From assembly GCA_033763315.1 (NCBI GenBank), contig JANRKS010000022.1, positions 32,001 to 96,000 of the forward strand: a stretch of 64,000 bases of DNA. The letters are read 5' to 3'. A model generated the notes under the pieces. That model was given only the letters and a program-made list of their open reading frames with translations, did no database searches and had not been told where the DNA came from. Of the stretch, positions 6,931 through 23,033 are shown piece by piece (positions within the stretch are counted from its first letter, which is position 1; every line of letters starts with the position of its first letter). Made by a program: the position numbers and the translations under genes. This DNA is from Deltaproteobacteria bacterium (GTDB taxonomy: Bacteria; Myxococcota_A; Polyangia; Fen-1088).

Positions 6931-8088
6931 TTACGACGCGCGTTTCGGACGATACCGCCGTCGAAAGTGCAGCGGTGTCTCCTTGAACCACCGCCGGAAT
7001 TGCACGCACAGATATTCAGCGTGTGTGTATCCCGTGCGTTGGGCGATCTCATAGATAGCCAAATCCGTTTCCGCGAGCAGTTGCTTTACGGCTGCCAGGC
7101 GACATCGTGCGATTTCATCGGCCGGCGAATGGCCAACAGCGCTGAGAAATCGTGCATCAAAAACGCGCCTCGATAGCCTTGAGCCCGCAAGGACGTCGGG
7201 GACTTTGATGCCCTCTTGCGCGTGGTCTCGAATGAAGCGCAAGGCTTGCCGCACAACCTGATCCGCAACGGCCAGGGTTTCAGTAGACTGACGTTCGGAG
7301 ATTCCTAGCGGCGGGATTCGTATTGCCACCGCGGCCACCGCACGGCCCGTCATCAATAGCTGTAGAGTCTGGGCCGCGCGCTCGCCGGCGCCGCGCGCGT
7401 CGGGCCGCACGCTTGTCAACGATGGCGTGCAGAGGGCACAGAGCAACGGGTCGTCGTCCACTCCGATCACAGCCACTGACTCAGGCACCGCCACGCCCCC
7501 CGCCTTACAAACCTGCAGAACTTCTCGCGCCAAGGAATCATAAGCCGCCATCAAGCCCACGGGTGGAAGCAACCCACGCAGCCAACGCGCGAGGTTGCGA
7601 CGCTTTTGTGACGAGTCAAAGACATCGACCTCGTGGCCATGCTGGCGAGCCAGACTCGTGAACGCCTCCCCGCGCCAGCGAGACCAGTTGAAACCTCGAT
7701 CACCCACAAAGGCAAAGCGGCGAAAGCCTCGCTGCCGCAGGTGCTCAAAAGCCATCTGCGCAATGGCCACGTCATCCGTTTCCACCCAGGGCACGATCTG
7801 CGGCGACAAGCGCGCAGAGCTAACGTCAACCACGGGCACACCCAAGGCCATGACTGCGTGTGAGACGCGCGCGTTTTCGAGGCGTGCGATAACGCCATCT
7901 CCTTTCCAGCCCGCCAGGTCCCCGGGGCTCCCCCGAGCGTGCTCAACCAGATCCACGGCCCAAGGCAAACGCTGCTCCCGGAGAAAGGATCCGATGCCCT
8001 CTAACAGCCCGCGCGCGTAGGCGTTGGAGGTTTCAATGACCAATGCAACGCGTTTTGCTTTGCCTGCGCGGCCGGCCGTGCGTGTCAT
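6931..8088 (-). CDS. XylR-type transcriptional regulator (periplasmic-binding-protein-like sensor plus AraC HTH)
   Basis: RVALVIETSNAYARGLLEGI, DGVIAR, VPESVAVIGVDDD, LTSVRPD; C-terminal AraC HTH (LLAETDLAIYEIAQRTGY...FRR...TPLHFRR). Start at ATG 8088. Confidence 0.88.
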   Translation of the reverse strand: MTRTAGRAGKAKRVALVIETSNAYARGLLEGIGSFLREQRLPWAVDLVEHARGSPGDLAGWKGDGVIARLENARVSHAVMALGVPVVDVSSARLSPQIVPWVETDDVAIAQMAFEHLRQRGFRRFAFVGDRGFNWSRWRGEAFTSLARQHGHEVDVFDSSQKRRNLARWLRGLLPPVGLMAAYDSLAREVLQVCKAGGVAVPESVAVIGVDDDPLLCALCTPSLTSVRPDARGAGERAAQTLQLLMTGRAVAAVAIRIPPLGISERQSTETLAVADQVVRQALRFIRDHAQEGIKVPDVLAGSRLSRRVFDARFLSAVGHSPADEIARCRLAAVKQLLAETDLAIYEIAQRTGYTHAEYLCVQFRRWFKETPLHFRRRYRPKRAS

Positions 8089-8537
8089 GTCACTTGGGGA
8101 ACCTAAGGCGAGGCGTCCGTGAACGGACGATGCCACAAAGCCAGAACTATCGCACACGATAGCCTTAGCTTTGGAAAAATCCTGACTTAGCCACACTTAG
8201 TCGCGTTAATGACTGTTCATTAAGGCCGGCCTTAAAGAGGTTTTACGATGGGTTAGTGACCGCTCGCGGTGCACTAGACGCTGTCACGAATCTTAGGCCT
8301 CACCTCGCCGCCCGCAAAAATTGCGAAGGGCGTATATGTCGGCGTGAAACAGAGCGACCTCGGTCCACAACGGAATTTTCCCTGCCACCAATCCGACAGA
8401 TCGGCGCATCTCGAGCCAATCGTAACCTCCCGTACTGCCTGATTCGGCGCAGCCGTCACCCCAGCGCGCGACCATGTTCATTACGCCATAAACGACTTGC
8501 ACATCTCTTGGGCGTTCCCCCGCAGCAGCAGGATCCC

Positions 8538-9614
8538 CTACTGACCCGTGACCGCGAAGCAGTTGAAACCACCATAGCCGCCGCCCGCGCCCACGGTCTT
8601 TGTGCCGTTGCTGGCTTTGAGCTCAGTGTCGATGCCTTTGCCACAACCACCTGCGGGGTGATCGCTGATCCAGTGGCGACCATTGTTGTTGGAGCGAGGC
8701 CAAGCGTGACCGATCATGGGCGGAGGCAGGTTCTGGTCTGTGCTTGTCCAATCGTTGCAGGTGCTTCCCGTGCCGGCCGCGTACTTGCCGTTCTTGTCCG
8801 AGCCCGTGAGCATGTCGTGGTTGTCCACCGACATGGCGGGTCGAATCGGATCGCCGTTTTCGTCGGTGAACATGATCGCTAGCGCCGGATCACCGCCCTT
8901 GGGCCGGCCGCCCGTGGCCGTGTTGTCGGGGATCAAGTCGGCCACCGTCTTTGCGAACAGCTTGTTGTTAAAGTCGTACCAGGGGCCTTTGCCGACCCGA
9001 TCGATGGCGTTCACGGGCTGCCCATTCGGACCGGCTTTGACGCTCAAGAAGGCATGCCATGTCTTTTGATCGCCGGGGTTGGTTTTCTGGGCAAGCTTCG
9101 TGCAAATGTTGTCGGCCCCCGCTAGGCCTCCCAAGTCGCCGCCCAAGCCGTTCACCTTGTCGGTCGCAAAAGACACAATGCCAGCTTGGCTCGTGGTGAA
9201 GAAAGTGAACCAAGGACGCTTGTCAGAAGCCGCGGTGCCTCCCGCCCCTGCCGCCGATCCGGCCGCCCCTCCTCCCATGCCGCCACCCATTCCCCCAGAA
9301 CCGCCAGCCTGCATGCCGCCGCTGCTTCCCCCACCACTTCCGCCTGAGCCCGAGCCGCCCACATTGCTGCCGCCGGATCCGCCGTCCGTTTTGGCGGCAC
9401 CCCCACCGCCGCCTTTTCCTCCTGCGCTGCTGCCACCTGATTCGGTGTCTCCGCCATTGCTTTCACCGCCATTGCCGCCATTGCCTTCATCATCGCCACC
9501 ACCACCTGACGAGCAATGCAGCGCCAAGGCCGCGATGCCCCCAAGAAGAGCTAAGCGAGACGTGGGGCGCAACGCGATACCACACAAAGCCATCGAACCA
9601 TTCTTCGTTTTCAT
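8538..9614 (-). CDS. Lipoprotein with Gly/Ser-rich linker and C-terminal endostatin/C-type-lectin-fold (DUF1554-like) domain
   Basis: Hydrophobic leader ending ALHC; long Gly-rich spacer; GDLGGLAGADNIC..LA...TWHAFLS...NAIDRVGKGPWY...CNDWTS...FNCFA. Confidence 0.7.
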   Translation of the reverse strand: MKTKNGSMALCGIALRPTSRLALLGGIAALALHCSSGGGGDDEGNGGNGGESNGGDTESGGSSAGGKGGGGGAAKTDGGSGGSNVGGSGSGGSGGGSSGGMQAGGSGGMGGGMGGGAAGSAAGAGGTAASDKRPWFTFFTTSQAGIVSFATDKVNGLGGDLGGLAGADNICTKLAQKTNPGDQKTWHAFLSVKAGPNGQPVNAIDRVGKGPWYDFNNKLFAKTVADLIPDNTATGGRPKGGDPALAIMFTDENGDPIRPAMSVDNHDMLTGSDKNGKYAAGTGSTCNDWTSTDQNLPPPMIGHAWPRSNNNGRHWISDHPAGGCGKGIDTELKASNGTKTVGAGGGYGGFNCFAVTGQ

Positions 9615-9654
9615 GGTGGATCCTTTCCGAACATAAGGAAGGTGGACAAGTGAT

Positions 9655-10713
9655 TCATTTACAGACGCGACGTACGTCTTCGCAGGTCTTGCCCATGGGG
9701 CAGTCCTCGGTGGTCCGGCACGAAGTCACGCCGTCAACGGCGAGATCAAGTACGGCCTCAGCGGTGACGTTAAACTCGACGCATCCGTTACCAACCGTTT
9801 TTGATTCAACCGAACGGCGCTTCAATGTCATCGTCGGAAATCCCGAAACACCCAGGGTCGAGAGCGCATCAACCAAGGCTGCGGGTATCTCGAACGAGCC
9901 TGTGTCGGGGGCGTCGCACTCAAGTTGCTGTGAGGTGGTGCCGTGGTTGTCAAGACTCACCACCATGTACACGCGCGCGCCGGAGCTCACGAGGGGCGGC
10001 TTCCACGAAAGGGTGATAGGCAAACCCTTCTTAACGGCAGGCGTGGTGGAGGTGACCTCAAGCGGCGCGATCCCTTTCGTGCTCAATGTGAACGCGGGAT
10101 AATCGCCGCCTGACGATGACAACGTGACGTCAGCACCCTCCGTTACGCCGGGGTATGCGATCGTTTCTTTGTTCGTGTAGAACTTGGTGCCCGACGGCGT
10201 CGCCGTCAGCGCTTGGGTTAAACCTGTGAGCGTGAGGGTGCCCAAGTCCTTTTGTTTGGGGCTTGCCACACACTTGGAATCAAGCCCACACAATGGTGTG
10301 TCACCCGTGCATGCCGGTGAACATTGCCTGATTGTTTGCTTCGAGACGCGGCAGACGCCGGAGGACTGCGTGACAGAGAAGACTTCCAGTGGGTTCACAC
10401 CGTCCTTTACGCTGCCCTGAAAGATGGTAAGCGAGGTGCCGTTATCGGTTTTCATGCCAAGCTCGAATTGGCCCACTTTCGACGTAGGGTCGCACGGCCG
10501 GTAGTTCGCCTCTTGGGGCTGCGTGGCCCCGCCCGCACCTGTGGCCCCGCCCCCCCCGCTGCCGCCGGTTGCGCCCTTGCCGCCCGACCCGCCCGCGCCC
10601 TCGTCCGAGCCGCCGCAGGCCACCGCCGCCACGCAGACGAGCACCGCTACCCACAAATTGGCTATTCTGGGCCCTGTCAAAGCCGCTAAACGAGAAGAAC
10701 ATGCCGAATTCAT
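9655..10713 (-). CDS. Cys-rich lipoprotein of unknown function
   Basis: Lipobox-like AVAC followed by a Gly linker; paired Cys motifs including C-terminal CRTTEDCPMGKTC...VC. Start ATG 10713 is uncertain. Confidence 0.65.
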   Translation of the reverse strand: MNSACSSRLAALTGPRIANLWVAVLVCVAAVACGGSDEGAGGSGGKGATGGSGGGGATGAGGATQPQEANYRPCDPTSKVGQFELGMKTDNGTSLTIFQGSVKDGVNPLEVFSVTQSSGVCRVSKQTIRQCSPACTGDTPLCGLDSKCVASPKQKDLGTLTLTGLTQALTATPSGTKFYTNKETIAYPGVTEGADVTLSSSGGDYPAFTLSTKGIAPLEVTSTTPAVKKGLPITLSWKPPLVSSGARVYMVVSLDNHGTTSQQLECDAPDTGSFEIPAALVDALSTLGVSGFPTMTLKRRSVESKTVGNGCVEFNVTAEAVLDLAVDGVTSCRTTEDCPMGKTCEDVRRVCK

Positions 10714-10989
10714 TGGGTTAATCAAAGCCCGAATTGGAGCGGGACAAGGTAAAAAAGCGGGCTTTTGAGCTGAATGTGAGGCGCGAAGCATGTTTGAACC
10801 GGCAGGTTTGTGGCGCTTTGTGTGCCGATTCCGTCAAAGTTTCGCGGACGAAAGGCAACAAAAACGAATGTTTCGGCTTCGGTCACATGGCATTTGGGCA
10901 AAGCAATCCGTTACGAAAAGTGCTACGACCTCGGGCTCAATCTTTAGAAACCCACCCCCTGCTTTCGCGAAAAGCAAACGAGGAAACGC

Positions 10990-12063
10990 ATGTCCAAGAT
11001 GAAATTGAAGCCTGGCGTTTTGACGGGTTCCGCCGTCAAAGAAGTTTTCGCTTACATGAAGGAGACGCAATGCGCCCTTCCTGCGGTCAACGTCATCGGC
11101 TCGAACAGCACCACGGCCGCGTTCCAGGCCGCCAAAGAAGCCAACGCCCCCGTCATCATTCAGTACTCGAACGGCGGCGCGCAGTTCAACGCAGGCAAGG
11201 CGATGGTGAACGACAAACTTCAAGCCTGCATCGCGGGCGCCGTGGCAGGTGCCCACTACGTGCGTTCATTGTCTGAGGCCTACGGCGTTCCGGTGATCTT
11301 GCACACCGACCACGCTTCGGAAAAATTCATTCCTTGGGTGGAAGGCATGTTGGATCACAGCGAAAAGTATTTCGCCGTGAACAAAGAGCCGCTGTTCAGC
11401 TCGCACATGTTGGACCTCAGCGAAATGCCGCTCAAGGAGAATCTGGAGATCTCCGCACGCGTGCTTTCGCGGATGGCGAAGATGGGCATGCTGCTTGAGA
11501 TCGAGCTTGGCGTCACCGGCGGCGAAGAAGACGGCGTTGATAACAGCGAGATCGACAACTCGAAGCTTTACACGCAGCCCTCTGAAGTCATGGCCGCGTA
11601 CGACGCTTTGAAGCCAATCGGTGGCTTCACGGTCGCGGCCTCGTTTGGCAACACGCACGGCGTGTACAAGCCCGGCAACGTGAAGTTGCGGCCAGACATT
11701 TTGAAAAACTCACAAGACGTGATCCAAAAGGAACGCAAGACGGGCCCCAAGCCTGTTGATTTCGTGTTCCACGGTGGTTCTGGTTCATCGCCCGAAGAGA
11801 TCAAGGCCGCAGTGAGCTATGGCGTGATCAAGATGAACATCGACACAGACACGCAATGGGCGTTCTGTGAGCCGATCCGTAAATACATGGATGACAAGAA
11901 AGCTTACTTGCAGTCGCAGCTCGGCAACCCCGAAGGCGAAGACAAGCCCAATAAGAAGTACATCGATCCCCGCGGCTGGCTGTGGCTCGGCGAAAAGGGC
12001 ATGACAGCACGCCTGGTGCAGGCCTTCAAAGATCTGAACTCATTCGGCCAATTCGAGTTCTAA
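10990..12063 (+). CDS. fbaA: Class II fructose-bisphosphate aldolase
   Basis: LPAVNV, ILHTDH, FSSHMLDLS, EIELGVTGGEEDG, SFGNTHGVYKPGNV, VFHGGSGS, KMNIDTDTQWA, PNKKYIDPR. Confidence 0.96.
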   Translation: MSKMKLKPGVLTGSAVKEVFAYMKETQCALPAVNVIGSNSTTAAFQAAKEANAPVIIQYSNGGAQFNAGKAMVNDKLQACIAGAVAGAHYVRSLSEAYGVPVILHTDHASEKFIPWVEGMLDHSEKYFAVNKEPLFSSHMLDLSEMPLKENLEISARVLSRMAKMGMLLEIELGVTGGEEDGVDNSEIDNSKLYTQPSEVMAAYDALKPIGGFTVAASFGNTHGVYKPGNVKLRPDILKNSQDVIQKERKTGPKPVDFVFHGGSGSSPEEIKAAVSYGVIKMNIDTDTQWAFCEPIRKYMDDKKAYLQSQLGNPEGEDKPNKKYIDPRGWLWLGEKGMTARLVQAFKDLNSFGQFEF

Positions 12064-12083
12064 AAACGCCGCCGGCACAACAC

Positions 12084-12125
12084 AAAGGGCGCCCCCGGTT
12101 CATGCCAGGGCGCCCTTTCGTTTTT
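12084..12125 (+). terminator. Intrinsic terminator after fbaA, probably bidirectional
   Basis: AAAGGGCGCCC...GGGCGCCCTTT stem followed by CGTTTTT; lies between convergent genes. Confidence 0.8.
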
Positions 12126-12130
12126 GCTGC

Positions 12131-14179
12131 TTACTGTCCGCGCCCGGGATGCGGTCGTGCTTGTTTGATCCACACCGTAGGTGTTTTTCCGCTGCCCATG
12201 TCGTCGAATTTAAACTCCACGTCCATGGCGTAAAAGCCCGCGGCCGTGCCGTAGGCGGGCCGGAAGTATTCGTGCACCTTGTCGAGCGCCCCGCCAAGCT
12301 CAAACATTTGCTCACGCGTGATCACCGTTTTACCCGAGCCCACAAGCGAGGAGTGGGCCAAATAGACCGCGGGCTGACCTGGCGAGTAATAATGATAGAT
12401 CAGTTCATCAGTCGTTGTCTTGGAACCGGGCAACACCACCGATGTTTCACCTTTTTGCACGTTGACGTAGAAGGCCGGCTCTAGGCCGGAGGTGTCAAAA
12501 GGGTTTGCCGTCAGAGCCACACCGTTGGCCTCCTCGTCCACAAACGAGACGCTGCACAGGATGGCCATGCCAACGGACTTGTGATCGATGCTGCGATATT
12601 CACGCTCTTCAAACGCGCGAAACAACCACACGCTGGCCCACGTGCTCTTCAGAGCCCTCAGAACGGGACGATCCGGATCTTCGACCTGCCCCGCGTACGA
12701 CTCATACAAACCCGCGCCTGTGAAGCCTTCAAGGTCTTCGGCGTTGGTGCTGGAACGAAACTTCATGCGCGTTCTCGGAAATTCGGTCTTTAGTTTTGCG
12801 AACAACGCTGCCTCAAACGCAGGATCAACCTTCCCCTTAATGATGTCTGCGCGAATGGCAGTCAGTTGTTTATCGCGCGTGGCGGGATCGCTTTTGAACA
12901 AAGGATCGGCCAACATCGCAGCGATCTTTGCCGAGATGCCGTTTTGATCCAGGTGCTGTTGGTAATAGAAGACGGGAATGCCAAAGGCACGGGGAACCGG
13001 AAGACCTGGAATGTGCTTTAGCGAAGAAAAGTGTGCGGCTTTGCCTCCGTAAGAAGGGATCGCCGTTTTGATGGCTTCTCGCAACGGCAAGCTCCCGTCG
13101 TTGGGCACGAGATCTTCGATGTTCTTAAGCGCGGTGACCGTCAAGTCCATGCGGGGCACGCCCACAGCGGCGGGTTTATTCGTCTCCCACCACGCGTCTG
13201 CTTCCGCCACCGGAACTTCAACAATCGTATAAGCAAAGGCCCCCACTTCCAGCTTTACCCATTTGTCCTTCAGCGCCGTAAGCGCCGGGTTGGTAACGGC
13301 TCCGCGCAAACTCATGTTTGGGGTGCGGCGGTTTTGGGAAAGCACGTTTAAATGCGACAGCGGCGTTTGGAAATCTTGCGTGATGATGCCCACCACTGTG
13401 GCGATGTCGTTCGGCACTCGATCCAGAACCACGATGTCGCGGAACGAAAGGTAAGTTTTGTGCAGATCGGCTTCCTTTACAAAACGCAACCGACCGTAAG
13501 ACGTTGCAATGTTGAGCGGTTGGTAATCGATGCCCGTAAAAAGGATCTCGTTGACCAAGAAAGGTACCTCTGGAGGCAGCGTGGCTGCGGTGGCCTCAGC
13601 GGTATCGGACGTGGGGTGAATCACTAAGTCGGTGCCGAAGTACGTTGCGGCTTTGACGGCCGCAAACAACTTGGTTTGCATGGCTGCGTTCGCCGTGTCG
13701 TAGGGAGCTAGCTCTAAGGTCCACACCTTCGCTTGATCGTAGTAGGTGACAGCCGCCAAGATGAAGCGACGATCGGGTGAGTAATATTCAGTTTGGTTGA
13801 ACGACGACAAAGGCGGCACCACGGGTTTGCCGTTGCCTGACAGAGCCATCGACGCAAATTTGTAGTGAACGGGAAACTTTGTGGTGTTCTGAAAATAAAG
13901 CTTATCGCCATCAGCTTGATCCAAAATGACTTTCATCGACCGCGCACCGGGAATGGTTGCGTCCAAAGGCGCGGCAGACAGCTGCACAAAGTCCTCGCGG
14001 CAACCGATGCGATCGAGAAAATCAGGCATGGACGCAGACGGAGCAACGCAGGCGCCTTCAGGGGCCTTGGCCACGGGGACCGCTTGTAAACCGGGGATGC
14101 TGCGTTCTGATTCACCGCCGCCGCAAGCAGCGACAACGACGAACGCAAACCAGAGCGCGCAAAGACCGTGTTTGTTCAT
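12131..14179 (-). CDS. Lipoprotein with phosphohistidine-like domain and C-terminal PEP/pyruvate-binding (PPDK_N, ATP-grasp) domain; dikinase-like
   Basis: Leader MNKHGLCALWFAFVVVAAC (lipobox VAAC); GIITQDFQTPLSHLNVLSQNRRTP His motif; YGGKAAHF, VPRAFGIP, FRSSTNAEDLEGFTGAGLYES, WASVW, MDVEFK, WIKQARP. Confidence 0.82.
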   Translation of the reverse strand: MNKHGLCALWFAFVVVAACGGGESERSIPGLQAVPVAKAPEGACVAPSASMPDFLDRIGCREDFVQLSAAPLDATIPGARSMKVILDQADGDKLYFQNTTKFPVHYKFASMALSGNGKPVVPPLSSFNQTEYYSPDRRFILAAVTYYDQAKVWTLELAPYDTANAAMQTKLFAAVKAATYFGTDLVIHPTSDTAEATAATLPPEVPFLVNEILFTGIDYQPLNIATSYGRLRFVKEADLHKTYLSFRDIVVLDRVPNDIATVVGIITQDFQTPLSHLNVLSQNRRTPNMSLRGAVTNPALTALKDKWVKLEVGAFAYTIVEVPVAEADAWWETNKPAAVGVPRMDLTVTALKNIEDLVPNDGSLPLREAIKTAIPSYGGKAAHFSSLKHIPGLPVPRAFGIPVFYYQQHLDQNGISAKIAAMLADPLFKSDPATRDKQLTAIRADIIKGKVDPAFEAALFAKLKTEFPRTRMKFRSSTNAEDLEGFTGAGLYESYAGQVEDPDRPVLRALKSTWASVWLFRAFEEREYRSIDHKSVGMAILCSVSFVDEEANGVALTANPFDTSGLEPAFYVNVQKGETSVVLPGSKTTTDELIYHYYSPGQPAVYLAHSSLVGSGKTVITREQMFELGGALDKVHEYFRPAYGTAAGFYAMDVEFKFDDMGSGKTPTVWIKQARPHPGRGQ

Positions 14180-14186
14180 GGAGCAC

Positions 14187-14864
14187 CTAAATGTCAAATG
14201 CATACGACAACACGAGGATGTGCAACGACGGATCGCCAACGTCCAAAAGCTTGTCTTCGTAACGATACTCGAAGCCCAAGCGGTGGTTGTTTACCTCAAA
14301 GTCCACTCCGGCCTCCAAACGATACTTATGGAAGCCCGTGCCATCTTGACCAGCAATGGCATAAAAGAGCTCGGTGCCCACGAAGGGGTCCCAGAAGCTA
14401 TCGGTGTCGTAGCCAAAAAGCAGCTCGTCGCGGAACCAATGGCGGTTGTCGGCGGAAAAATCCGAGCTGCGTTGTTCTTGGTAGCGCAGCCGATTCGAAA
14501 CCTTGAACTTGTGGCTTTTCGTTTTGACTCGGACATCGGCGTAAACGCGGTGCCATTCCACAAAGCGTTCAAAGCGGTTGCGCATCTGTAAGTAGCGGTA
14601 ACCAAGCGTTACACGCAGCCACTTCTTGATGTCGTAGTTCCCAGAGAGATCAGGCATCACATTGTCCACGCGCCACGGATCGGTGTGAAACCGGATGTGC
14701 TGATCGAAATCGAGGCGGAGGCGTTTGTTGAAGTTGTAGCGGACACCCACTTTTGTCCACAGCTCTTCGTCAGCGGCTTGCGCAGGCGACGGACGCACCA
14801 TGGGGATCAGCAACGCTGCCCAAAGACATGCAGAAGATACGAGTTTAAATGCAAGACGAAGCAT
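14187..14864 (-). CDS. DUF2490-like outer-membrane beta-barrel protein
   Basis: Signal peptide (AQA); amphipathic strands; NRLRYQEQ, WFRDEL, PFVGTELFY, KYRLEAG; C-terminal YAFDI. Confidence 0.7.
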   Translation of the reverse strand: MLRLAFKLVSSACLWAALLIPMVRPSPAQAADEELWTKVGVRYNFNKRLRLDFDQHIRFHTDPWRVDNVMPDLSGNYDIKKWLRVTLGYRYLQMRNRFERFVEWHRVYADVRVKTKSHKFKVSNRLRYQEQRSSDFSADNRHWFRDELLFGYDTDSFWDPFVGTELFYAIAGQDGTGFHKYRLEAGVDFEVNNHRLGFEYRYEDKLLDVGDPSLHILVLSYAFDI

Positions 14865-14872
14865 GTAAAACT

Positions 14873-15478
14873 TTACGGGCGATGAAAAACAGTGAGGTGA
14901 ACGGTATCCCGCAACAGATCGATCTGCCCCACGGAAACGCGATGAATTTTGAGACCCGTGCGCGCGTGTAAATCGGCAATCAGCTCTGTGCGTTTCTCCG
15001 GCCGAAGCAGATCCAGTTTGTCGTAAAGCACCAATTGCTCGTCTTCAATTCCACCAAACGAGGCCCGTTCAAGAATCACGATGGCCAGCACCGTGATCAC
15101 GTTGACGAACAAAAGTTCAGACACGCTGATCTTCTTGTTCGATAGGCCATTCCAAATGCCTACGCCAATCAGCACGAACAGATAGGTCAGATCGCGGCTG
15201 CGCATGGCTTCGGTACGGTAGCGTAAGATGCCGAACACCGCGAAAAGGCCCAGAGCAAACCCCAGTTCGATGGGCACCTTGCGCAGCAACGTGCAGATGA
15301 ACAGGGTGACCAAGTTCAACATATAGAACACGAAGACGTATTCGCGCCGTCGGTACATCGGGTAATACACGCCCCGGATGACAACCGTGGCCACGAGCAA
15401 ATCGAGGATCAGACGCGTCAGCAGCTTTCCAAAATCTTCGGCATCTAGGAACGCACTCGCACCAAACAATTCAAGCAT
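14873..15478 (-). CDS. DUF4956-like integral membrane protein
   Basis: About five hydrophobic segments; signature GFALGLFAVFGILRYRT...RDLTYLF; soluble tail LIADLHARTGLKI..VSVGQIDLLRD. Overlaps the VTC gene stop. Confidence 0.82.
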   Translation of the reverse strand: MLELFGASAFLDAEDFGKLLTRLILDLLVATVVIRGVYYPMYRRREYVFVFYMLNLVTLFICTLLRKVPIELGFALGLFAVFGILRYRTEAMRSRDLTYLFVLIGVGIWNGLSNKKISVSELLFVNVITVLAIVILERASFGGIEDEQLVLYDKLDLLRPEKRTELIADLHARTGLKIHRVSVGQIDLLRDTVHLTVFHRP

Positions 15479-16238
15479 GCACAAGCCTTTCAATCATTCG
15501 CACAGCCGGACGGAAGGCGTTTACTCGGGTCGCCAATCCCAAAAACGCCACACCGAGAGAGTATTTGCTGAAAGATCGCGCGCGCGCCGATACATCGTGC
15601 AGGGCCTCAGTGAAAGGCGTGCGGCTAAGCGCGTTGGCTTGTTTGATCTCGGTGACCACAAGACGCGATAAATCTTTGCTTACGCTTCCGACCGCAAACG
15701 ACAAAAATATGTCCGAGGTGACGCGTTCACCCAGCACGGGATCAAGCAACGTCAACCGCAAAAAGTTGGTGCCCAGCAGCGGACGCAACGCAGCCGGATC
15801 AAGTTGCGTGTGTTTGCGGATGAAGTTGTAATTGGAAGCCGCAATGGCGTCTTGGCCAAACGTAATCTGTTTCCGTTCCTTCAGGGTCTCGCCCCGGTTT
15901 GTCTTTTGTTTCACTTCGAGATACGAGACTTGGCGATCAGGATAGTGCCGAATGCGCACTTTGAAGCGCGGCCGCTTGCCCCGCGCGTGCTGCATGAACA
16001 TGAACATATCGGGTGTATCGAAATACACGGTCTGGTAGGTGGCTAACGGGCGGCCGGCGGTGGGGAGCACTCGGTACTTCCCCTTCACTTGCTCAAGGAC
16101 CTGCTCCAGTTGTTTGTCACGAAGCACAAACTTTCGGTCGAAGCGGCGCTGCAAGGCCGTGGCCTCAACGTCGGCCCAGGAGGCGGCGGGGAAAGCCGAC
16201 AACAAGACCTCGTCACTGAGATATTGGGGAACGTTCAC
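15471..16238 (-). CDS. VTC-domain (polyphosphate polymerase, CYTH/TTM fold) protein
   Basis: RFDRKF, YQTVYFDT, RFKVRIRHY, YLEVKQK, ERVTSD, VTEIK, FSKY motifs; GTG start at 16238 preceded by GGGAGA. Confidence 0.85.
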   Translation of the reverse strand: MNVPQYLSDEVLLSAFPAASWADVEATALQRRFDRKFVLRDKQLEQVLEQVKGKYRVLPTAGRPLATYQTVYFDTPDMFMFMQHARGKRPRFKVRIRHYPDRQVSYLEVKQKTNRGETLKERKQITFGQDAIAASNYNFIRKHTQLDPAALRPLLGTNFLRLTLLDPVLGERVTSDIFLSFAVGSVSKDLSRLVVTEIKQANALSRTPFTEALHDVSARARSFSKYSLGVAFLGLATRVNAFRPAVRMIERLVHA

Positions 16239-16416
16239 TGCAGATCTCCCAAGGCGCAGCCGCGATGCCAACCGCCGAGCTGAAAGACTAACCTATTGCG
16301 ACGATGAAGTGACAATCGAGTAAATTTTCCGTCAATGCGGTATGTGGGCGGCAGGGCCCCACTTCATCAGCTTTTTTCACGATTTTGTGAGACTCCAGTC
16401 GCACAAAGGCACGGCC

Positions 16417-17601
16417 CTACGGGGCAAGCCAGCGGAACAGTTCTGTGTTTTCGATGGCGGCGGGAAACTGCGCGGCCCCCACCCCCGCCGCGAACAACGG
16501 CACCGGCGCGGCGGTGTGCCAGGTCTCCGCGAAGCTGTGGCGGGGCAGAACGCCCGCCTGGGGTGGCTCGTCGGCCAAAGACAGGCCGCCCGTTTCGTGA
16601 TCGGCCGTGACCACAATCAAGGTGTCACCACGGCCCGCTTGCCATGCAAGTGCGGCCGCCACCGCGCGATCGAGCTCGAGAACCGACGCCACCACATGCT
16701 GCAAATCGTGGGCATGCGCAGCCGTATCGGTGCCTTCATTTTCGACCAGCAAGAAGAACCCCACGGGGTTGCGTGAAAGGAAGCTGATGGCCGTGGCCGC
16801 GACGCCCGAAAGCGCAGGGGGCGTGCTTTCATAGAGCCAGGCAAGCTTGACGGTGCCGGGCATGGGTAACTCCGTTGGAGCTTCGGTGATTGCGGTATAT
16901 CCGGCGGCCGCCGCCACCACGTTGTCAGCATTGACGACGGCCTCGGCGGCCAAAAAATCGGGCCTCACCACGTCGAACAGATCGTGCGCGATGCCATCGT
17001 AGGCATAACGAGAGCTCTGGTGCGCGATGAACGCGGCTGGCGTGGCATCCACGATCGGCGTCTCACGCGTCACAAGGCCGGTGGCCGCACCCAAGGCCTT
17101 CCGCAGCTCAAGCGCCGTGGGCAACGGCGCTCCTCCACCAGGAAGCTGTAAGCCAAGAACTTCATTTTGCACTTTTCTGCCGGTGGCGAACGCTGTGGCC
17201 CCCGCCGCGGAATCGGTGATGCCACCCAAGGCATTGCGGGTAAACATGCGCCCCTTCGTGGGCAAGGTTTCCATCGTCAGGGGCGCAGTGTTGCCATTGG
17301 CAAAGCGACGGGCCGCCTCCACCTGCGCGAAGCCCATGCCATCGCCAATGAACAGAATCACATTGCGCGCGAACGGGGGGCGAGGGGCGGCACGGCGCAG
17401 GTCAGCGGCGAAGGCAGCGTCGTTGGCGCCGGGCCAGCCGCCATCCTCAGCCACACCCGCAGGCGTGCGCGCGTCGGCGCCCAGACCCAGACGCGGTTCA
17501 CGAAACGAATGATCGCCTTCATGGCACGCGGCCAAGCCGGAAAGCACAAGCAGAACGGAAGGCAAAACAACAACGCTTCTCACCTGCAACCGCGTGAACA
17601 T
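16417..17601 (-). CDS. phoA: Alkaline phosphatase (PhoA type), lipoprotein
   Basis: Lipobox LAAC; NVILFIGDGMG, ITDSAAGATAFATG (catalytic Ser), DATPAAF, GFFLLVE, DTAAH, LIVVTADHETGG. Confidence 0.88.
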   Translation of the reverse strand: MFTRLQVRSVVVLPSVLLVLSGLAACHEGDHSFREPRLGLGADARTPAGVAEDGGWPGANDAAFAADLRRAAPRPPFARNVILFIGDGMGFAQVEAARRFANGNTAPLTMETLPTKGRMFTRNALGGITDSAAGATAFATGRKVQNEVLGLQLPGGGAPLPTALELRKALGAATGLVTRETPIVDATPAAFIAHQSSRYAYDGIAHDLFDVVRPDFLAAEAVVNADNVVAAAAGYTAITEAPTELPMPGTVKLAWLYESTPPALSGVAATAISFLSRNPVGFFLLVENEGTDTAAHAHDLQHVVASVLELDRAVAAALAWQAGRGDTLIVVTADHETGGLSLADEPPQAGVLPRHSFAETWHTAAPVPLFAAGVGAAQFPAAIENTELFRWLAP

Positions 17602-17607
17602 GCAGCG

Positions 17608-17613
17608 ATTATA
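17608..17613 (-). promoter_or_regulatory. Perfect -10 hexamer (TATAAT) 6 nt upstream of the phosphatase ATG; possible leaderless promoter
   Basis: Minus strand reads TATAAT-cgctgc-ATG with no Shine-Dalgarno sequence. Confidence 0.45.
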
Positions 17614-17621
17614 GACTCGCT

Positions 17622-20600
17622 TTAGGTCAACAGGGTGGCAAGACGTTTCACCACGTCGGCGGCGTCGGGCGCGGTCGAGGCGGCCACACGCATGGTTTCC
17701 TCAGCAAGCGGTTGCGGTAGGACCTCTTTGAGCAACGCCCACGCGGCCTCACACCGGCGTTTGGCTGAAGCGGCGTCTGGCGCAAACGCGGCCAGTTCTG
17801 ACAACGCCGCGTAGATTTCGGAAGCAGCGGGCCACACGGGCGGAGCGATCTTCGCCGCCAAGACGGCATCGCCAGCCGCGGCGCTGGCCAAACACAAGAT
17901 GAGGCTCAACTGCTCCGCCTGTGCCGCTTCCCGGCCTTCTTCGTTGGCTTGCAGATCAGCAGCGACGCCGGCCACATCTAACACTTCGCCGCGTTGCCAA
18001 TAAAACGGCACCAGCCGGACCAAAGCCGGAGCGAAAGTGGGATCCATATCGGCCGAGCGCAAGTAGGCGTCCATCGCGCCCGTGGACTCCTGCAATGAAA
18101 CGCGCCGCAACTCGCCTTCACGGAACAACGCGCGCGCGCGCTCACGGGGCAACGTGTAAAGCCGTGACAATCGGTTCCACAAGGACGCCGCCGATACGTG
18201 ATCGCCCAGCATCTCTGCCGCCTGGGTCAACCGCTGCAAGGCCGTCAAACGTGTGGGTTCAAGACGCGTGGCTTCTTCAAGGTAGGTGCGCGCGGCAGCC
18301 GCGTTGTCCAGCGCGAGCAAGCATTCGCCCATGCGCTCACAAAGCGCGACCCGGCGGCCCACCGCCTCAGCCGGCAAACTCTGCAGCACGGGCGCGAGAA
18401 GCTTGACCACTTCAGCGTGGTCTTCGCGCAGGTAAGCAAATTCAGCCAAGGCTTCGCTCGCACCTGCATGCGTGGGCTCAAGCTCAAGCACCTTGCGGTA
18501 GTTCGCCTCGGCGGCCGCCTCGTCGCCAAACATTTCGGCCAGCTCGGCGCGGCGGAACGCCAACAACACGGGTTCGATCACGCCTGTGTGATCAGGCTTT
18601 TCACTGAGCGCTTCGTACGCGCGCCGTGCCTCAGCCCAATCTTGCAAGCGGTAAGACAGCTCGGCAAAAGCGCCAAGCGCACCAACGTGGTTCGGATCCG
18701 CAGCCAGCGCTTCATCAAGATCAGCCACCGCGGCGTCCAAAGCTTTTTGGCTGACGGCAAAAGCCGCACGCGCCACAAGCCAACCCGCACGTATCGGCGC
18801 AGGCACAGGTTCAGCCAACGCGCGCGCAAAACGCTCTTCGGCGGCCGCATGATCATCTTGTGTGATCGCGTGTTGAGCGAGCTTGAGCCACAGGCGGCCC
18901 TTGACCGTGGGCTCAAGTTCACTGGGCGGCGCCAGCAGAGCGGCGATCTTATCTTCATGGCCGCTGACGTCACCCAGCGCTTCATAGAGCGCGGCCAACT
19001 GTTGTGCCGCGGCGGCGTCCACGGGTCCGCGTTCTGCCAAACGTTCAAGTAAGGGCAACGGCCCAAGGCCGCCGGGCAAACCTAGATCCGCCAGCTGTAG
19101 GAAGGCATCGCGATCCGCCGCGGTAAGCGCACCATCCACGCCTGCGGCACCAGGCGCCAAACGCGCTGAAGCTTCTGCCAAAACCGCAGCCACATCACTT
19201 TCGTTGCCCACCTTGCGAGCCAACTCCGCGCGCAGAGCCAGACCCGCGACGGGCAACGTGGGCAAAGGCCAGCCCTGCAAGACAGCATAGGCCGCGGGCA
19301 CCCCGGCCTCCCCCTCAAGGCGCGCGCGCGCACGTTCAACCACCAACGCAGGCTCTTCGATGGCCGGCGCCAGTGGCGCGAGTTCAACAGCGGAGCCGGG
19401 AGCGTTCACAAAGTCAGACGCCGTTTCGTTGTCGGGCGTCGGTGTTGACGAATGCGCTTCGGTTGACGAGGGCTCGATCAAACCAGCGCGGGCCAGCACT
19501 TCGTCGGCCTGCTGCCATGCGCCCCGTGCCAACAACAAACGCCCTAAACTATCGCCCGCCTCTTTGAGTACGGCCGGTGATTGCATCAGCGCGCGCAACA
19601 TGTCTTCGGCACGTTCAACGTCTTTGCCCGAACGCCACAACGCGCGCGCAATTTCAAGCTTGAGCACCAAGGGATCGGGCTCGCGTGGTTCGGTGGAATC
19701 GCTTTGCTGTTCGCTCACCGCAAGCAAGCGTTCGAGCGTCAAAAGCAGTTCGTCAAAACGCGATTCGCGCCGGCACAGTTCAATCAGCCGCTTTTGTGTT
19801 TCAAGATCCTCGGGCGCCGCGACCAAGCGGCGACGATACACCGCCAAGGCTTCATCTGAACGGCCCAACCGCTCAAGCGCGCGTGCATAGGCCATTTCAA
19901 TTTCGTGCTGCTCGGGTGACAGTGGCGCCGCCAACTCAAGACGCCCGGCCAACGCCTTGACCAGCGCTTCTGCGAATCCAGCGGAATCAAGCCCGTCAAC
20001 AAGCAGCGCCAAATCGGCGCCGTGGGGCTCTTGCGCCAGCGCGCGTTCAAGATGTGCCTCGGCGTCCGCGAGGGAGCCGGTCAAGCGATCCCAACGCGAC
20101 AAGCGCAAGTGTGCGTTCGCCTTGTCTCGGCTCGACACCAGACCACGGCCATCAGGGCGGCCCGCAACACGCAGCAAGCGTTCAGAAATTGTGGCGGCTT
20201 CGTCGAGGCGGCCTTCATCCCACGCGCGCGCCGCCCCCCACAACAATGACGGCACGTGCTCGGCGTCGACTTCAAGCGCGCGTGCGTAGGCGGCGTCGGC
20301 TTGCGCCGGATCCGCCAAATGTTGAGCGTAAACCCAACCGAGTTTTGCAAAAGCATCGCGGCGCTCAGCAAGGCGCGTGTTGGCGGCATGCGCCTGCAAA
20401 GTTCGCGCAACCAATTCCCATTCGCCACGCGCTTCGTAGGCCTCTTGCAGCGCGCGCCACGCTTCGCCGCGCGAAGGATCCCGTTCCGATGCCGACTGCC
20501 AGGCGGCCAGCGCCGCGTCCTTGGATTCGGCTTGCTCGAACAGCTTTGCGGCCGCGATCCAAACCTCGGCAACACGTTCACTCTCGTTCGAACCTGCGCG

Positions 20601-23033
20601 GGGCGTGCCGGCTTGTTCGATTGACTGCACCAGCGCCTTCGCCGCAGCCGAAGGCTTGCCTTGTGCCGACCACAACTGCGACGACCGCTGGCCGAGCTCC
20701 AAACACACGTCAAATGCGGCCGCGCCCTCGAGACCTTTCTCGAACGCGGCGAGCGCCGCTTCGTCATCGCCTTGCGCTTCGGCCAAGCGGCCTCGCATCA
20801 AAGCAAGCTCACCGTGCAAGGGTCCGGCGGCGCCCGTGGTGGAGCTGAGGTAACCCTCGATGATGCGCACCAAATCGGCGGCCACGGCGGCGTGTTGCTC
20901 GGCGGGGCCGGCGGTTTCGGCCAACCACTCTTCGGCCCACGCGATCGCGGCGCGCGCGCCGGCGTTGGTGCCCGTGGCGGACGCGGTGGCCAAAGCGCGC
21001 GTCACGAAATCGGATTGGCCCGCACGATCCGCCACGTCACGGGCGCGCCCCAACACGGCGGCGAAGATCACGGGATCGGTGATGCGCTCCAGGGCGCGTT
21101 CGAAGCGAACCAGCACGTCGCCAAGATCTTCAGCTGCCGCTTGGGCGGCCAATTCGTCCAACGCGCCAAGATGGGCCGGATTGCTGCGCAACACATCGTC
21201 AAGCGCCACGCGGCCTCGCGCCTTATCGCCAAGCACGCGGCCCAACAAACCTGCGCGCTCTACGTCTAGATCAAGCTTATCATCGCCTTCGGACACAGCG
21301 CTTGCGGACGCGAGCAACTGGGCGGCTTCTTCGCCACGCCCCAGGCGCGACAGCACACGCGCGCGCTGCTGCAGCCATGCAACGGCGCCGGGTTGCAACG
21401 TAAGTGCCTGGGCCCAATGCGCTTCAGCGGCCGCGTCCACGCCCGCTGATTCTTCACACTGCGCAAGCGCCGCCAGCGCTTCGGCTTGTGAGTCGGTGGC
21501 GCGCATGGCAGCGAACAAAGCCACCGCTTTTTCAAGGGCAAGCCTGGCGCCGTCATGGTTGCGTGAAGCTTTGCGCGCGCGGCCCAAGCCGAGCCACGCC
21601 GGCGCCAACATTTCATCAAGCACCACGGCCTCGGCAAAACGTTCGGCGGCCTTATCAACTTGCCCAAGCTCATCGAACAACACTTGACCCGCGTCGCACA
21701 GAAGCTTCGCGCGTGCGACGGGGCTGGGCTCTTCGAGCTCGCGGCGCCGCAACAACGCAAGCCACTCACTCCAGCGCTTTTGCACGCCGAAAATGCGGCG
21801 CAGAACGTCCAGCGCACGCGGGTGCCCGGGCCGCGCCACGCGCACCGATTCGAGCAAGCCCAACGCGCGCTCGGTTTGCCCCGCCTCCAAGTAAGCTTCG
21901 GCAGCGGCGGTGAGCGCCGTGGCCGCTTCCAAGCTGGGCAAGGCTTCGCCGGCTTGGGCCAATTGTTCGTAAAGTTCGGCAGCTTCTGCGGAACGCCCCT
22001 GGGCCAATGCCGAAACGGCGCGCGCCAACAAAGCGGGCGCGAAACCGGGCATGCGCGCCAACAGCGCACTGGCCAGCTCTTCAGCTTCACGCAGCGATTG
22101 GGGCGTGATGCACAGCAGTTGCAGCAAACGCGTGGCGACGAAAACGTTGCCCGAGTGAAGCGTCGCCGCACGACGGTAAAGCGCCAGCGCCGCGGCCACA
22201 TCACCTGTGGCCAAATGCGATTCCGCCTCGGCAAACAAGCTGCGGCCTTCTTCATACGCGGCACGCCCGCCTGAGTGGGTGGATGACGAGCCGAACGAAA
22301 ACTCGTCGTCGTCGTCCGCGGCGCGCGTCAACGGTGCAAACCGCAACAACACGCGGTCCCCACCATGTCCAAGCGGCAGCAAACCCAAGCCGCCACGCCC
22401 AGGCATGCGCCAGCCGCGCATCGGAAACAGATCCAGCAGCGCCAACTCAAGCGGCTCGACCACCACTTCGGTGGGCCCTTGCAGGTACGCAAACGGCGGC
22501 CGATCCGCAGGACCGTGATCAAGAATGGATCCACACACGGCTTTGAGCAGCGCTGTGATCACCTGCGGCGCACCGATGGGCAAAAAGCCGTGTAAACGCA
22601 GATCGTAAACCGCCACGCGCAAACGCCGCGGCTGCAGAACGCGGAAATAACCGGCCGCCAGCAGCTCGGCGCCGTGGCTGCCCACCTCAACGCGCGCTTG
22701 CAGCGTGAACCCATCAGGTCCCATCTCGACGATCGGCCGCAAGATGCCAACCTGAGCCAGCGGTGCGCGCGCCAAAAGCCGCACAACATCGTTGGCACTT
22801 AACGAAAGCGTAAGCTGGTTTAGCTGGCAGCGGCGGTTGGCAAAGCGGGTCGAGCCGCCCGACAAATCAAAAGGAAAGCGCAGGTTGGGCACTGTCATCG
22901 CCAGCGCGTCCACACGCCCTACATGCGACAGGCCGAATGACGTGAGCGAAAGCTGCCCCTGCCCGCTTTCGATTTGAACCACGAGAGGAAGCGCGTTTCG
23001 TGCCGCCGCCGGGGCCTCTGGACGCGCGGTCAC
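17622..23033 (-). CDS. Giant tetratricopeptide-repeat protein (1803 aa) with non-TPR N-terminal domain
   Basis: Long Ala/Leu-rich helical repeats (AxxxYxRALxxxPxxxxA) throughout; beta-rich N-terminus containing PNLRFPFDLSGG. Confidence 0.8.
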   Translation of the reverse strand: MTARPEAPAAARNALPLVVQIESGQGQLSLTSFGLSHVGRVDALAMTVPNLRFPFDLSGGSTRFANRRCQLNQLTLSLSANDVVRLLARAPLAQVGILRPIVEMGPDGFTLQARVEVGSHGAELLAAGYFRVLQPRRLRVAVYDLRLHGFLPIGAPQVITALLKAVCGSILDHGPADRPPFAYLQGPTEVVVEPLELALLDLFPMRGWRMPGRGGLGLLPLGHGGDRVLLRFAPLTRAADDDDEFSFGSSSTHSGGRAAYEEGRSLFAEAESHLATGDVAAALALYRRAATLHSGNVFVATRLLQLLCITPQSLREAEELASALLARMPGFAPALLARAVSALAQGRSAEAAELYEQLAQAGEALPSLEAATALTAAAEAYLEAGQTERALGLLESVRVARPGHPRALDVLRRIFGVQKRWSEWLALLRRRELEEPSPVARAKLLCDAGQVLFDELGQVDKAAERFAEAVVLDEMLAPAWLGLGRARKASRNHDGARLALEKAVALFAAMRATDSQAEALAALAQCEESAGVDAAAEAHWAQALTLQPGAVAWLQQRARVLSRLGRGEEAAQLLASASAVSEGDDKLDLDVERAGLLGRVLGDKARGRVALDDVLRSNPAHLGALDELAAQAAAEDLGDVLVRFERALERITDPVIFAAVLGRARDVADRAGQSDFVTRALATASATGTNAGARAAIAWAEEWLAETAGPAEQHAAVAADLVRIIEGYLSSTTGAAGPLHGELALMRGRLAEAQGDDEAALAAFEKGLEGAAAFDVCLELGQRSSQLWSAQGKPSAAAKALVQSIEQAGTPRAGSNESERVAEVWIAAAKLFEQAESKDAALAAWQSASERDPSRGEAWRALQEAYEARGEWELVARTLQAHAANTRLAERRDAFAKLGWVYAQHLADPAQADAAYARALEVDAEHVPSLLWGAARAWDEGRLDEAATISERLLRVAGRPDGRGLVSSRDKANAHLRLSRWDRLTGSLADAEAHLERALAQEPHGADLALLVDGLDSAGFAEALVKALAGRLELAAPLSPEQHEIEMAYARALERLGRSDEALAVYRRRLVAAPEDLETQKRLIELCRRESRFDELLLTLERLLAVSEQQSDSTEPREPDPLVLKLEIARALWRSGKDVERAEDMLRALMQSPAVLKEAGDSLGRLLLARGAWQQADEVLARAGLIEPSSTEAHSSTPTPDNETASDFVNAPGSAVELAPLAPAIEEPALVVERARARLEGEAGVPAAYAVLQGWPLPTLPVAGLALRAELARKVGNESDVAAVLAEASARLAPGAAGVDGALTAADRDAFLQLADLGLPGGLGPLPLLERLAERGPVDAAAAQQLAALYEALGDVSGHEDKIAALLAPPSELEPTVKGRLWLKLAQHAITQDDHAAAEERFARALAEPVPAPIRAGWLVARAAFAVSQKALDAAVADLDEALAADPNHVGALGAFAELSYRLQDWAEARRAYEALSEKPDHTGVIEPVLLAFRRAELAEMFGDEAAAEANYRKVLELEPTHAGASEALAEFAYLREDHAEVVKLLAPVLQSLPAEAVGRRVALCERMGECLLALDNAAAARTYLEEATRLEPTRLTALQRLTQAAEMLGDHVSAASLWNRLSRLYTLPRERARALFREGELRRVSLQESTGAMDAYLRSADMDPTFAPALVRLVPFYWQRGEVLDVAGVAADLQANEEGREAAQAEQLSLILCLASAAAGDAVLAAKIAPPVWPAASEIYAALSELAAFAPDAASAKRRCEAAWALLKEVLPQPLAEETMRVAASTAPDAADVVKRLATLLT

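Follow-up and report, generated by a model that had tools for sequence, protein, structure and literature searches.

A predicted exported dikinase encoded beside a VTC/DUF4956 module in an accessory envelope gene cluster of Myxococcota

Gene organization of the locus

A 64,000-nucleotide stretch of DNA (here called the window) from a Myxococcota genome deposited as Deltaproteobacteria bacterium was analyzed (assembly GCA_033763315.1, contig JANRKS010000022.1, positions 32,001 to 96,000 of the forward strand). It was found that four densely packed minus-strand genes encode a VTC-domain protein, a DUF4956 inner-membrane protein, a DUF2490 protein and a lipoprotein with a PPDK_N domain, while a lipoprotein alkaline phosphatase is encoded upstream. 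The PPDK_N lipoprotein, hereafter the dikinase, forms a set with two further lipoproteins, c1 and c3. Comparative genomics makes it quite probable that this exported dikinase set is functionally tied to the VTC module. What is new here is the exported dikinase variant of a known, uncharacterised VTC/DUF4956 module. The genes of the cluster are as follows, from upstream to downstream.

16417..17601, minus strand: alkaline phosphatase, a lipoprotein of 394 residues (Pfam Alk_phosphatase 1.6e-49; NCBIfam PRK10518 9.8e-36; lipobox GLAAC)
15471..16238, minus strand: VTC-domain protein of 255 residues (longest open reading frame 15471-16271; Pfam VTC 8.5e-20)
14873..15478, minus strand: DUF4956 inner-membrane protein of 201 residues (longest open reading frame 14873-15493; Pfam DUF4956 1.4e-48)
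14187..14864, minus strand: DUF2490 protein of 225 residues, a candidate outer-membrane beta-barrel (Pfam DUF2490 2.1e-22; weak OMP_b-brl match 3.6e-4)
12131..14179, minus strand: dikinase-like lipoprotein of 682 residues (longest open reading frame 12131-14239; Pfam PPDK_N 1.4e-25)
9655..10791, minus strand: Cys-rich lipoprotein c1, 378 residues in its longest open reading frame, a neighbor of the dikinase family with no named family of its own
8538..9614, minus strand: DUF1554/lectin-like lipoprotein c3 of 358 residues, also a neighbor of the dikinase family

The likely start codon of the VTC gene is the GTG at 16238, which has GGGAGA 6 nucleotides upstream, and the likely start codons of the DUF4956 and dikinase genes are the ATG codons at 15478 and 14179. 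The stop of the VTC gene and the start of the DUF4956 gene overlap by 8 nucleotides (ATGCTTGA). The DUF4956 and DUF2490 genes are separated by 8 nucleotides, and the DUF2490 and dikinase genes by 7 nucleotides. Re-reading of these junctions bore out the dense packing claimed in a preliminary description of the window, and all five of its domain calls have a Pfam match. The co-oriented lipoprotein phosphatase gene that it placed upstream was confirmed, and tight coupling was not seen across the spacer of 145-178 nucleotides between the phosphatase stop and the VTC start. The VTC and DUF4956 genes occur once each in the genome. A promoter and terminator scan of positions 8300-17800 gave counts no higher than in shuffled sequences. 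Cellular compartments were predicted from sequence features and a hydropathy scan.

Dikinase-like lipoprotein

The dikinase has a lipobox cysteine (Cys19), an N-terminal domain (about residues 45-222), a phosphohistidine swivel domain (about residues 218-335), and an ATP-grasp domain (about residues 347-682). An AlphaFold2 model made from 44 homologues had a pLDDT of 88.6. Its ATP-grasp part matched rifampin phosphotransferase (5hv1_A) with Z 30.4 and a root-mean-square deviation of 2.4 Å over 291 residues; HpeI and PPDK were matched too, and a profile search of the PDB gave a match to PEPS (2e-16). Residues 218-335 matched the PK C-domain (2e28, Z 10.7), Enzyme I (2wqd, Z 10.0), and the phosphoryl-carrier domain of PPDK (2fm4, Z 8.0, 100 residues aligned).

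No Pfam family, PF00391 (PEP-utilizers) included, was found in residues 1-380 at E <= 10, and hhalign of the full-length dikinase alignment against PEP-utilizers gave only a spurious 46-column match (probability 5.8%). In contrast, an hhalign comparison limited to residues 225-350, with the genome's three PEP-utilizers domains as templates, aligned 97 columns across the whole domain and put the invariant H276 on the catalytic His. The score was 27.3, as against a mean of 11.5 (standard deviation 2.3, maximum 17.8) for 60 column-shuffled templates, that is, a z of about 7; a reversed template scored 14.0. In the model, H276 opens the helix 276-284. Other invariant motifs of the dikinase are QTPLSH, GGK, RSS..ED, D.E.K, and KQARP. 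Judged from sequence and model, the lipoprotein is a dikinase-type enzyme with a swivel His domain and a complete ATP-grasp domain, and catalysis is predicted.

The lipobox (VVAAC) indicates export. At least 32 of the 44 family members have a strict pattern of signal peptide plus Cys, the cysteine at position 19 is conserved in at least 90% of the 44, and C44 and C60 are invariant. An exported lipoprotein with a His domain and an ATP-grasp domain, as proposed in the preliminary description, was upheld by this lipobox conservation, by the fold matches (Z 30.4 for one domain and Z 8.0-10.7 for the other), and by the alignment of H276. In five of six longer relatives scanned (P0124 was left out), the N-terminal part and the ATP-grasp part are fused to extracellular modules: GH11 plus CBM2 plus LTD, a Pel9A-like beta-helix, fn3/Ig, or FG-GAP. 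For example, P0123 (1420 residues) and P0121 (1202 residues) have the dikinase core fused with a GH11 xylanase, CBM2 and LTD, and with a Pel9A-like beta-helix, respectively. In these two, an ATP-grasp enzyme forms part of a secreted protein of carbohydrate-active architecture. Such fusions hint at a glycan context.

The N-terminal domain, folded alone, reached a pLDDT of 90.9, and K83, D87, H105, Y132, R137, E156 and D161 are invariant in it. The fold search gave a best Z of 4.2 and no chain with Z >= 5 among 48,161, and Foldseek found none at E <= 0.001, in an April 2026 copy of the PDB that possibly does not include the central-domain structure of StGWD1. A new fold is not implied.

The nearest known enzyme in layout is the plant glucan,water dikinase (GWD). 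In the available part of the description of StGWD1 (PMC13553574), the His domain precedes the C-terminal ATP-binding domain, and a short helix opens with the catalytic His. The order of substrate part, His domain and ATP domain is thus common to StGWD1 and the lipoprotein, and this order of His domain then ATP domain is unlike that of PPDK, PEPS and RPH. In both, the catalytic His starts a short helix, and rifampin phosphotransferase is the nearest match of the ATP domain (PMC13553574, same part). This likeness comes from the model, the fold matches and the published description of StGWD1, not from a direct sequence comparison. The dikinase differs from StGWD1 in being a predicted exported lipoprotein of 682 residues, and no CBM45 or CBM20 of the GWD type was found by Pfam in residues 1-380. 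A rifampin-phosphotransferase-type antibiotic kinase was ruled out by the different domain order and by the predicted export.

The family is large. Among 7999 candidates scored, 2091 proteins had E <= 1e-10, and all are annotated 'PEP/pyruvate-binding domain-containing protein'. A second, distant dikinase-lipoprotein paralogue with 32% identity is encoded on another contig of the same genome (C7:24703-26607). No VTC or DUF4956 gene lies near it, both being single-copy genes on contig C22, and no c1 or c3 matches were found on C7.

Linkage of the dikinase genes to VTC and DUF4956 genes

Is this gene arrangement common among relatives of the dikinase? I found 294 genomic relatives, and the best 80 were kept as loci; their titles are mostly those of Myxococcota, and many have short flanks. 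A first tblastn pass with the window proteins gave linkage in 4-5 of the 80 loci and missed a divergent VTC/DUF4956 subfamily, and iterated hidden Markov models (HMMs) were used instead. With these, 19 of the 80 dikinase loci had a VTC, DUF4956 or DUF2490 gene within 10 kb (DUF4956 in 17, VTC in 14, and DUF2490 in 4). Representative arrangements, including loci beyond the 80, are as follows.

L097: dikinase-VTC-DUF4956-DUF2490-like; the first two junctions are gaps of 33 and 17 nucleotides, and the DUF4956 gene overlaps the final gene by 4 nucleotides (this final gene was assigned by a purpose-built HMM; Pfam at 1e-6 was negative)
L090: VTC-DUF4956-c3-dikinase-DUF2252-DUF2490-LTD
L094: dikinase-LTD-c1-SGL...DUF4956-DUF2490
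L098: divergent, head-to-head
L038, L039, L054, L063: dikinase-DUF4956-like-HlyD
L101: SGL-dikinase-c1-Porin_O_P-CotH-99-residue protein-VTC-DUF4956

The DUF2252 protein of L090 lies at 7650-9158, between the dikinase and DUF2490.

The closest counterpart of the window was found in a relative of the same genus (L106). There, the phosphatase, VTC, DUF4956, DUF2490, dikinase, c1 and c3 genes are contiguous on one strand in this order, with c1 directly after the dikinase gene, and the protein identity is 47-75%. In the window, the dikinase gene and c1 are parted by fbaA (10990-12063, plus strand), which encodes a class II fructose-bisphosphate aldolase (Pfam 1.4e-78), while L106 has no gene at this position. 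This points to a local rearrangement or an insertion that split the cluster. As to the extent of the cluster, the four core genes and the phosphatase gene named in the preliminary description stand, and the two lipoprotein genes beyond fbaA (9655-10791 and 8538-9614), which it did not count, belong to the cluster as well.

The same question was asked of 251 sampled genomes of the phylum. Of these, 131 have DUF4956, 101 have a member of the dikinase family, and 136 have CotH. DUF4956 is present in 84 of the 101 dikinase-holding genomes as against 47 of the 150 others, the genomes not being phylogenetically independent. In at least 10 of the 84 genomes with both, the two genes lie within 10 kb on one contig (among the matches listed, read by eye), where a rough estimate of the chance expectation is less than 1. 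A FastTree phylogeny that comprised 87 dikinases requires 14 changes of the linked state, of which at least 11 are forced by well-supported branches. Six of the 87 rows (L090, L094, L097-L099, and L101) were chosen because they are linked, which raises the linked count (26) but leaves the spread in the other 81 rows unaffected. Recurrent linkage of the dikinase to VTC/DUF4956 was the test set beforehand, and the linkage proved to be recurrent (19 of 80 loci and at least 10 of 84 genomes), although it is not obligatory.

The canonical DUF4956 gene was found in 4 of 30 relatives and in 2 of 18 genomes of the same family. The cluster is accessory and patchily distributed, and it is possible that it was acquired horizontally. 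This distribution would also suit the view that the dikinase set has no functional link to the VTC module, both being separate envelope units that often landed in the same variable regions. Several findings fit that view: 61 of the 80 dikinase loci have no VTC, DUF4956 or DUF2490 gene within 10 kb, fbaA interrupts the cluster, and the core four genes have a G+C content of 0.54-0.55 (window positions 12001-16000) while the flanks have 0.57-0.67. In addition, 17 of the 101 dikinase-holding genomes have no DUF4956 match. Dikinase loci and genomes without the module therefore indicate that the dikinase can work without VTC/DUF4956. However, at least four gene orders show the linkage, which involves both VTC/DUF4956 subfamilies, with gaps as tight as 7 nucleotides in the window and 33 nucleotides in L097. 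Linked loci are scattered across the dikinase tree, and the co-occurrence in genomes points the same way within the limit given above. I consider mere co-location very improbable.

c1 and c3 are the commonest neighbors of the dikinase genes. Homologues of c1 were found in 65 of the 80 dikinase loci (in 59 within 5 kb) and those of c3 in 43. The nearest Atlas clusters of c1 are Myxococcota hypotheticals, and no Pfam family was found for the c1 homologue L069:7698-8753, the copy that was scanned in place of the window copy. c3 has Atlas feature and structure matches to clusters named lectin or DUF1554, and a homologue has a weak Pfam match to DUF1554 (0.0033).

Relation to CotH

Genes for CotH, a polyphosphate (polyP) polymerase and DUF4956 are known as a set of accessory genes of pel operons in Gram-positive bacteria (Whitfield et al., 10.1101/768473 = PMC7112168, in the part available). 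In Streptococcus intermedius (SIR_1592-1594), the available part of PMC12345266 reports that deletion of the DUF4956 gene raised Pel, deletion of the CotH gene lowered Pel, and both cut aggregation. In the available text of the two papers (10.1101/768473; PMC12345266), the function of the CotH/VTC/DUF4956 trio is left unexplained. The preliminary description knew of no described pathway of this kind. As far as the accessible portions of these papers go, the trio itself was already in print with its function unexplained, whereas no publication tying an exported dikinase to VTC/DUF4956 was found in a search that did not cover the supplements of the Pel papers (operon figures S4-S7).

The Gram-positive pel-locus set, as described in those portions, resembles the present cluster in that adjacent VTC and DUF4956 genes lie beside a gene for an exported phosphotransferase-type protein, and in the link to extracellular polysaccharide proteins. 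Here, in contrast, there are two membranes and an outer-membrane barrel, the exported enzyme is a His-domain/ATP-grasp dikinase instead of a CotH kinase, a phosphatase and two additional lipoproteins are encoded too, and the vicinity has no pel genes.

Neither a PF08757 search nor tblastn with four myxobacterial CotH proteins detected CotH in this genome (completeness 90.85%). The dikinase is the sole linked ATP-grasp or kinase-type enzyme in this genome. Has the dikinase then taken the place of CotH, as was first proposed? The same DUF4956 subfamily does have CotH, the dikinase, or both as partners. CotH-VTC-DUF4956-DUF2490 operons were found in two loci of the same class (L087 and L108) and in two of other classes of the phylum (L085 and L095). 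Twelve DUF4956 genomes lack CotH; five of these have the dikinase family, and in three (the present genome, G000, as well as G120 and G237) it lies beside DUF4956. However, simple replacement fails, and the dikinase as a strict substitute for CotH was ruled out: 79 of the 131 DUF4956 genomes hold both families, and both occur locally in two loci. In L101, CotH and the dikinase belong to one co-directional gene run, a putative operon, and in L106 a CotH gene (PF08757, 2.8e-28) is divergently transcribed about 1 kb above the cluster. When 22 canonical DUF4956 proteins were placed in a tree, rows linked to the dikinase were intermixed with rows that have CotH only; 4 changes are needed, a number matched by 68 of 500 shuffles. 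One DUF4956 core thus occurs with different exported partners, and since both families co-occur, the dikinase is an additional partner and not a substitute.

VTC-domain protein

A profile of 13 myxobacterial homologues of the VTC protein matched the catalytic domain of yeast Vtc4 (3G3Q) with E 1.2e-21 at positions 32-265, that is, over the whole tunnel. The matches of the same profile to the non-catalytic Vtc2 and Vtc3 were much weaker (E 1.4e-11 and 1.9e-09). A phmmer search of the PDB with the single VTC protein gave chance-level rows only, without a Vtc4 match. The invariant residues are K36, R95, R97, E108, K110, K120, R122, R161, R172, D176, E197, K199, S224, and K225. Residues were mapped to Vtc4 numbers through the profile columns and the chain numbering of 3G3Q. 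The columns of Vtc4 K200, R264, R266, E279, K281, K294, R296, R361, R373, E426, S457, and K458, which I take to be among the important tunnel positions, are invariant or nearly so among 23 sequences. The VTC protein has an isoelectric point of 10.3, and no signal peptide was read from its translation. In Pfam, it has a VTC match only; an SPX domain and a Vtc1-type three-helix membrane domain are absent. From its sequence, it is predicted to be a cytoplasmic Vtc4-like triphosphate-tunnel enzyme in which the polyP-polymerase residues are kept, with presumed polymerase activity. The genome also holds PPK1 and PPK2, and therefore the VTC module would not be the sole polyP route of the cell but an extra one.

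The eukaryotic VTC complex (yeast Vtc4 with Vtc1/2/3; PDB 3G3Q, 7YTJ, and 8I6V) has the catalytic tunnel domain in common with the present protein, and in both cases a membrane protein accompanies the enzyme, which fits, without proving, translocation coupled to synthesis. In contrast, the eukaryotic complex has SPX and a Vtc1-type membrane domain, while a VTC-only protein of 255 residues with DUF4956 as its partner is found here. Vtc4 Y359 is replaced by Phe, and the target is the vacuole there and the predicted periplasm or surface here.

Other envelope components

DUF4956 has about 4-5 transmembrane segments and a C-terminal soluble domain according to the hydropathy scan. R86 and R88 (Arg-x-Arg) and F101, in a GILRYRT loop, are invariant, and no other Pfam match was found at E <= 0.01. 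In the available part of PMC12345266, the streptococcal homologue is described as an MgtC-like transmembrane domain plus an ACT domain.

The DUF2490 protein begins with a signal peptide whose last residues are AQA. It likewise follows DUF4956 in L001, L031, L045, L087, L094, L095, L097, L106, and L108. In 9 of the 19 linked loci (L004, L023, L024, L035, L038, L039, L054, L063, and L064, all of the divergent VTC/DUF4956 subfamily), the gene directly after the DUF4956-like gene is not one for a DUF2490 barrel; one or two genes for HlyD-type adaptors stand there instead. The HlyD layout is a second envelope-spanning arrangement beside the same dikinase family. In L101, a Porin_O_P protein takes the barrel position. 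Thus, the place of DUF2490 in the core, as first described, holds for some loci, while others have an HlyD adaptor or Porin_O_P instead.

The phosphatase gene adjoins the VTC gene in three loci, namely, the window, L106, and L001 (on the opposite strand in L001). It was not found in the other 79 of the 80 dikinase loci nor in L083-L102. The role of eraser that the preliminary description gave to the phosphatase did not hold up well: with three loci behind it, such a role is possible and thinly supported. Other phosphate-handling genes lie nearby in some loci, such as a Metallophos phosphoesterase gene near DUF2490 in L095 and a DSP-type protein phosphatase gene beside the dikinase gene in L099 (6137-6733).

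These phosphate-related genes raise the possibility of phosphate sensing or scavenging. The VTC protein would then cleave tri- or polyphosphate, or would sense phosphate status by way of the MgtC-like/ACT protein; the barrel would be a phosphate or anion porin, the phosphatase would free phosphate, and the dikinase set would be co-regulated under phosphate stress. The phosphatase beside VTC in three loci, Porin_O_P at the barrel position, and the Metallophos and DSP-phosphatase genes are consistent with this, as is the general knowledge that triphosphate-tunnel (TTM) enzymes include triphosphatases. A link of MgtC to phosphate homeostasis, which also suits this explanation, is cited in the accessible portion of PMC12345266. 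However, the phosphatase is absent from nearly all dikinase loci, the residue set of the VTC protein is nearer to the catalytic Vtc4 than to the degenerate Vtc2 and Vtc3 by the E-values given above, and the constant partners are exported kinase-type enzymes and not uptake systems. This explanation is improbable.

Farther from the cluster, a 1803-residue TPR-rich protein is encoded immediately upstream of the phosphatase gene (window 17622-23033, minus strand). At the corresponding place, L106 has a 321-residue open reading frame of no family and the divergent CotH gene. At 1697-4876 (minus strand), a secreted protein of 1059 residues was read from the translation, with propeller-like repeats, a CxxCH haem motif, and an unassignable C-terminal domain.

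Proposed function

I propose that the genes form an accessory envelope cluster of Myxococcota composed of two coupled units, with a polyP-fuelled dikinase as the most likely mechanism; this proposal is tentative, and I put its chance well short of even. The first unit would consist of VTC, DUF4956 and DUF2490, that is, a tunnel enzyme translationally coupled to an MgtC-like inner-membrane protein and followed by an outer-membrane barrel. The second unit would consist of three lipoproteins with a GWD-type enzyme at the center, accompanied by a lectin-like protein and a Cys-rich protein. The first unit would polymerize phosphate from cytoplasmic nucleoside triphosphate at the membrane and pass the chain to the periplasm and the surface. 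Lacking an obvious supply of ATP there, the exported dikinase would tap this phosphoanhydride pool directly or after conversion. It would load H276 and phosphorylate a surface polymer, probably a glycan. Where present, the lipoprotein phosphatase would remove or recycle phosphate. That polyP is made, exported and used as fuel is putative chemistry, to which I give roughly one chance in three at best. The passage via DUF4956 and DUF2490, the phosphoryl donor of the dikinase, and its target are likewise inferred.

Several points weigh against a polyP-fuelled dikinase. The ATP-binding motifs of the dikinase are intact, which favors nucleotide use over the direct use of polyP. Its N-terminal domain has no structural relative and gives no clue to the substrate, and the compartment calls come from sequence features only. 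The tyrosine of Vtc4 at position 359 is lost from the VTC protein, TTM enzymes with the same basic tunnel include triphosphatases, and polymerase and hydrolase are not separable by the sequence of this protein. No biochemical data for any bacterial VTC/DUF4956 protein were found in the literature searched. In S. intermedius, deletion of the VTC gene gave no aggregation phenotype, according to the available part of PMC12345266.

In a different explanation, polyP would not be a fuel but a polyanion of the matrix or the cell surface, made as a product in its own right. VTC, DUF4956 and DUF2490 (or HlyD) would export it, while the dikinase, CotH, LTD, beta-helix and lectin-like proteins would build or modify the matrix, sharing regulation and location and obtaining nucleotide from released ATP or vesicles. 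Genes for extracellular binding proteins abound in the neighborhoods (LTD, Beta_helix, SGL propellers, Cthe_2159, and MopE), the dikinase keeps every ATP-grasp nucleotide motif, and HlyD or Porin_O_P in place of DUF2490 fits the export of a polyanion. The altered levels of Pel polysaccharide in streptococcal CotH and DUF4956 mutants (PMC12345266, available part) are also in line with it. However, it leaves unexplained why two unrelated ATP-dependent phosphotransferase families gather around the module, and a source of extracellular ATP for these enzymes is not known. I regard polyP as a mere surface product as possible but unlikely.

The proposal of a polyP-fuelled dikinase may be extended. 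The VTC protein and its membrane partner, as a polymerase-translocase, would be an energy line to the ATP-free envelope into which CotH and the GWD-like dikinase plug. The dikinase would run reversible His chemistry, either from polyP to a surface glycan, or from AMP and polyP to periplasmic ATP for partner kinases. Periplasmic ATP regeneration would fit L101, because CotH and the dikinase share a putative operon there. This extension is doubtful.

A second, unrelated family of ATP-dependent phosphotransferases is found at the same VTC/DUF4956 core, sometimes without CotH in the genome. This points to a shared need for a supply of phosphate bonds and not to a CotH-specific role. The cluster offers a simple test system, with one His (H276), one small tunnel enzyme, and cultivable myxobacteria that have linked loci (e.g., Sorangium, L038 and L039). 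The finding thus bears on two open questions, namely, what the phosphoryl donor of exported kinases like CotH may be, and whether bacteria may have a third, VTC-type route to polyP.

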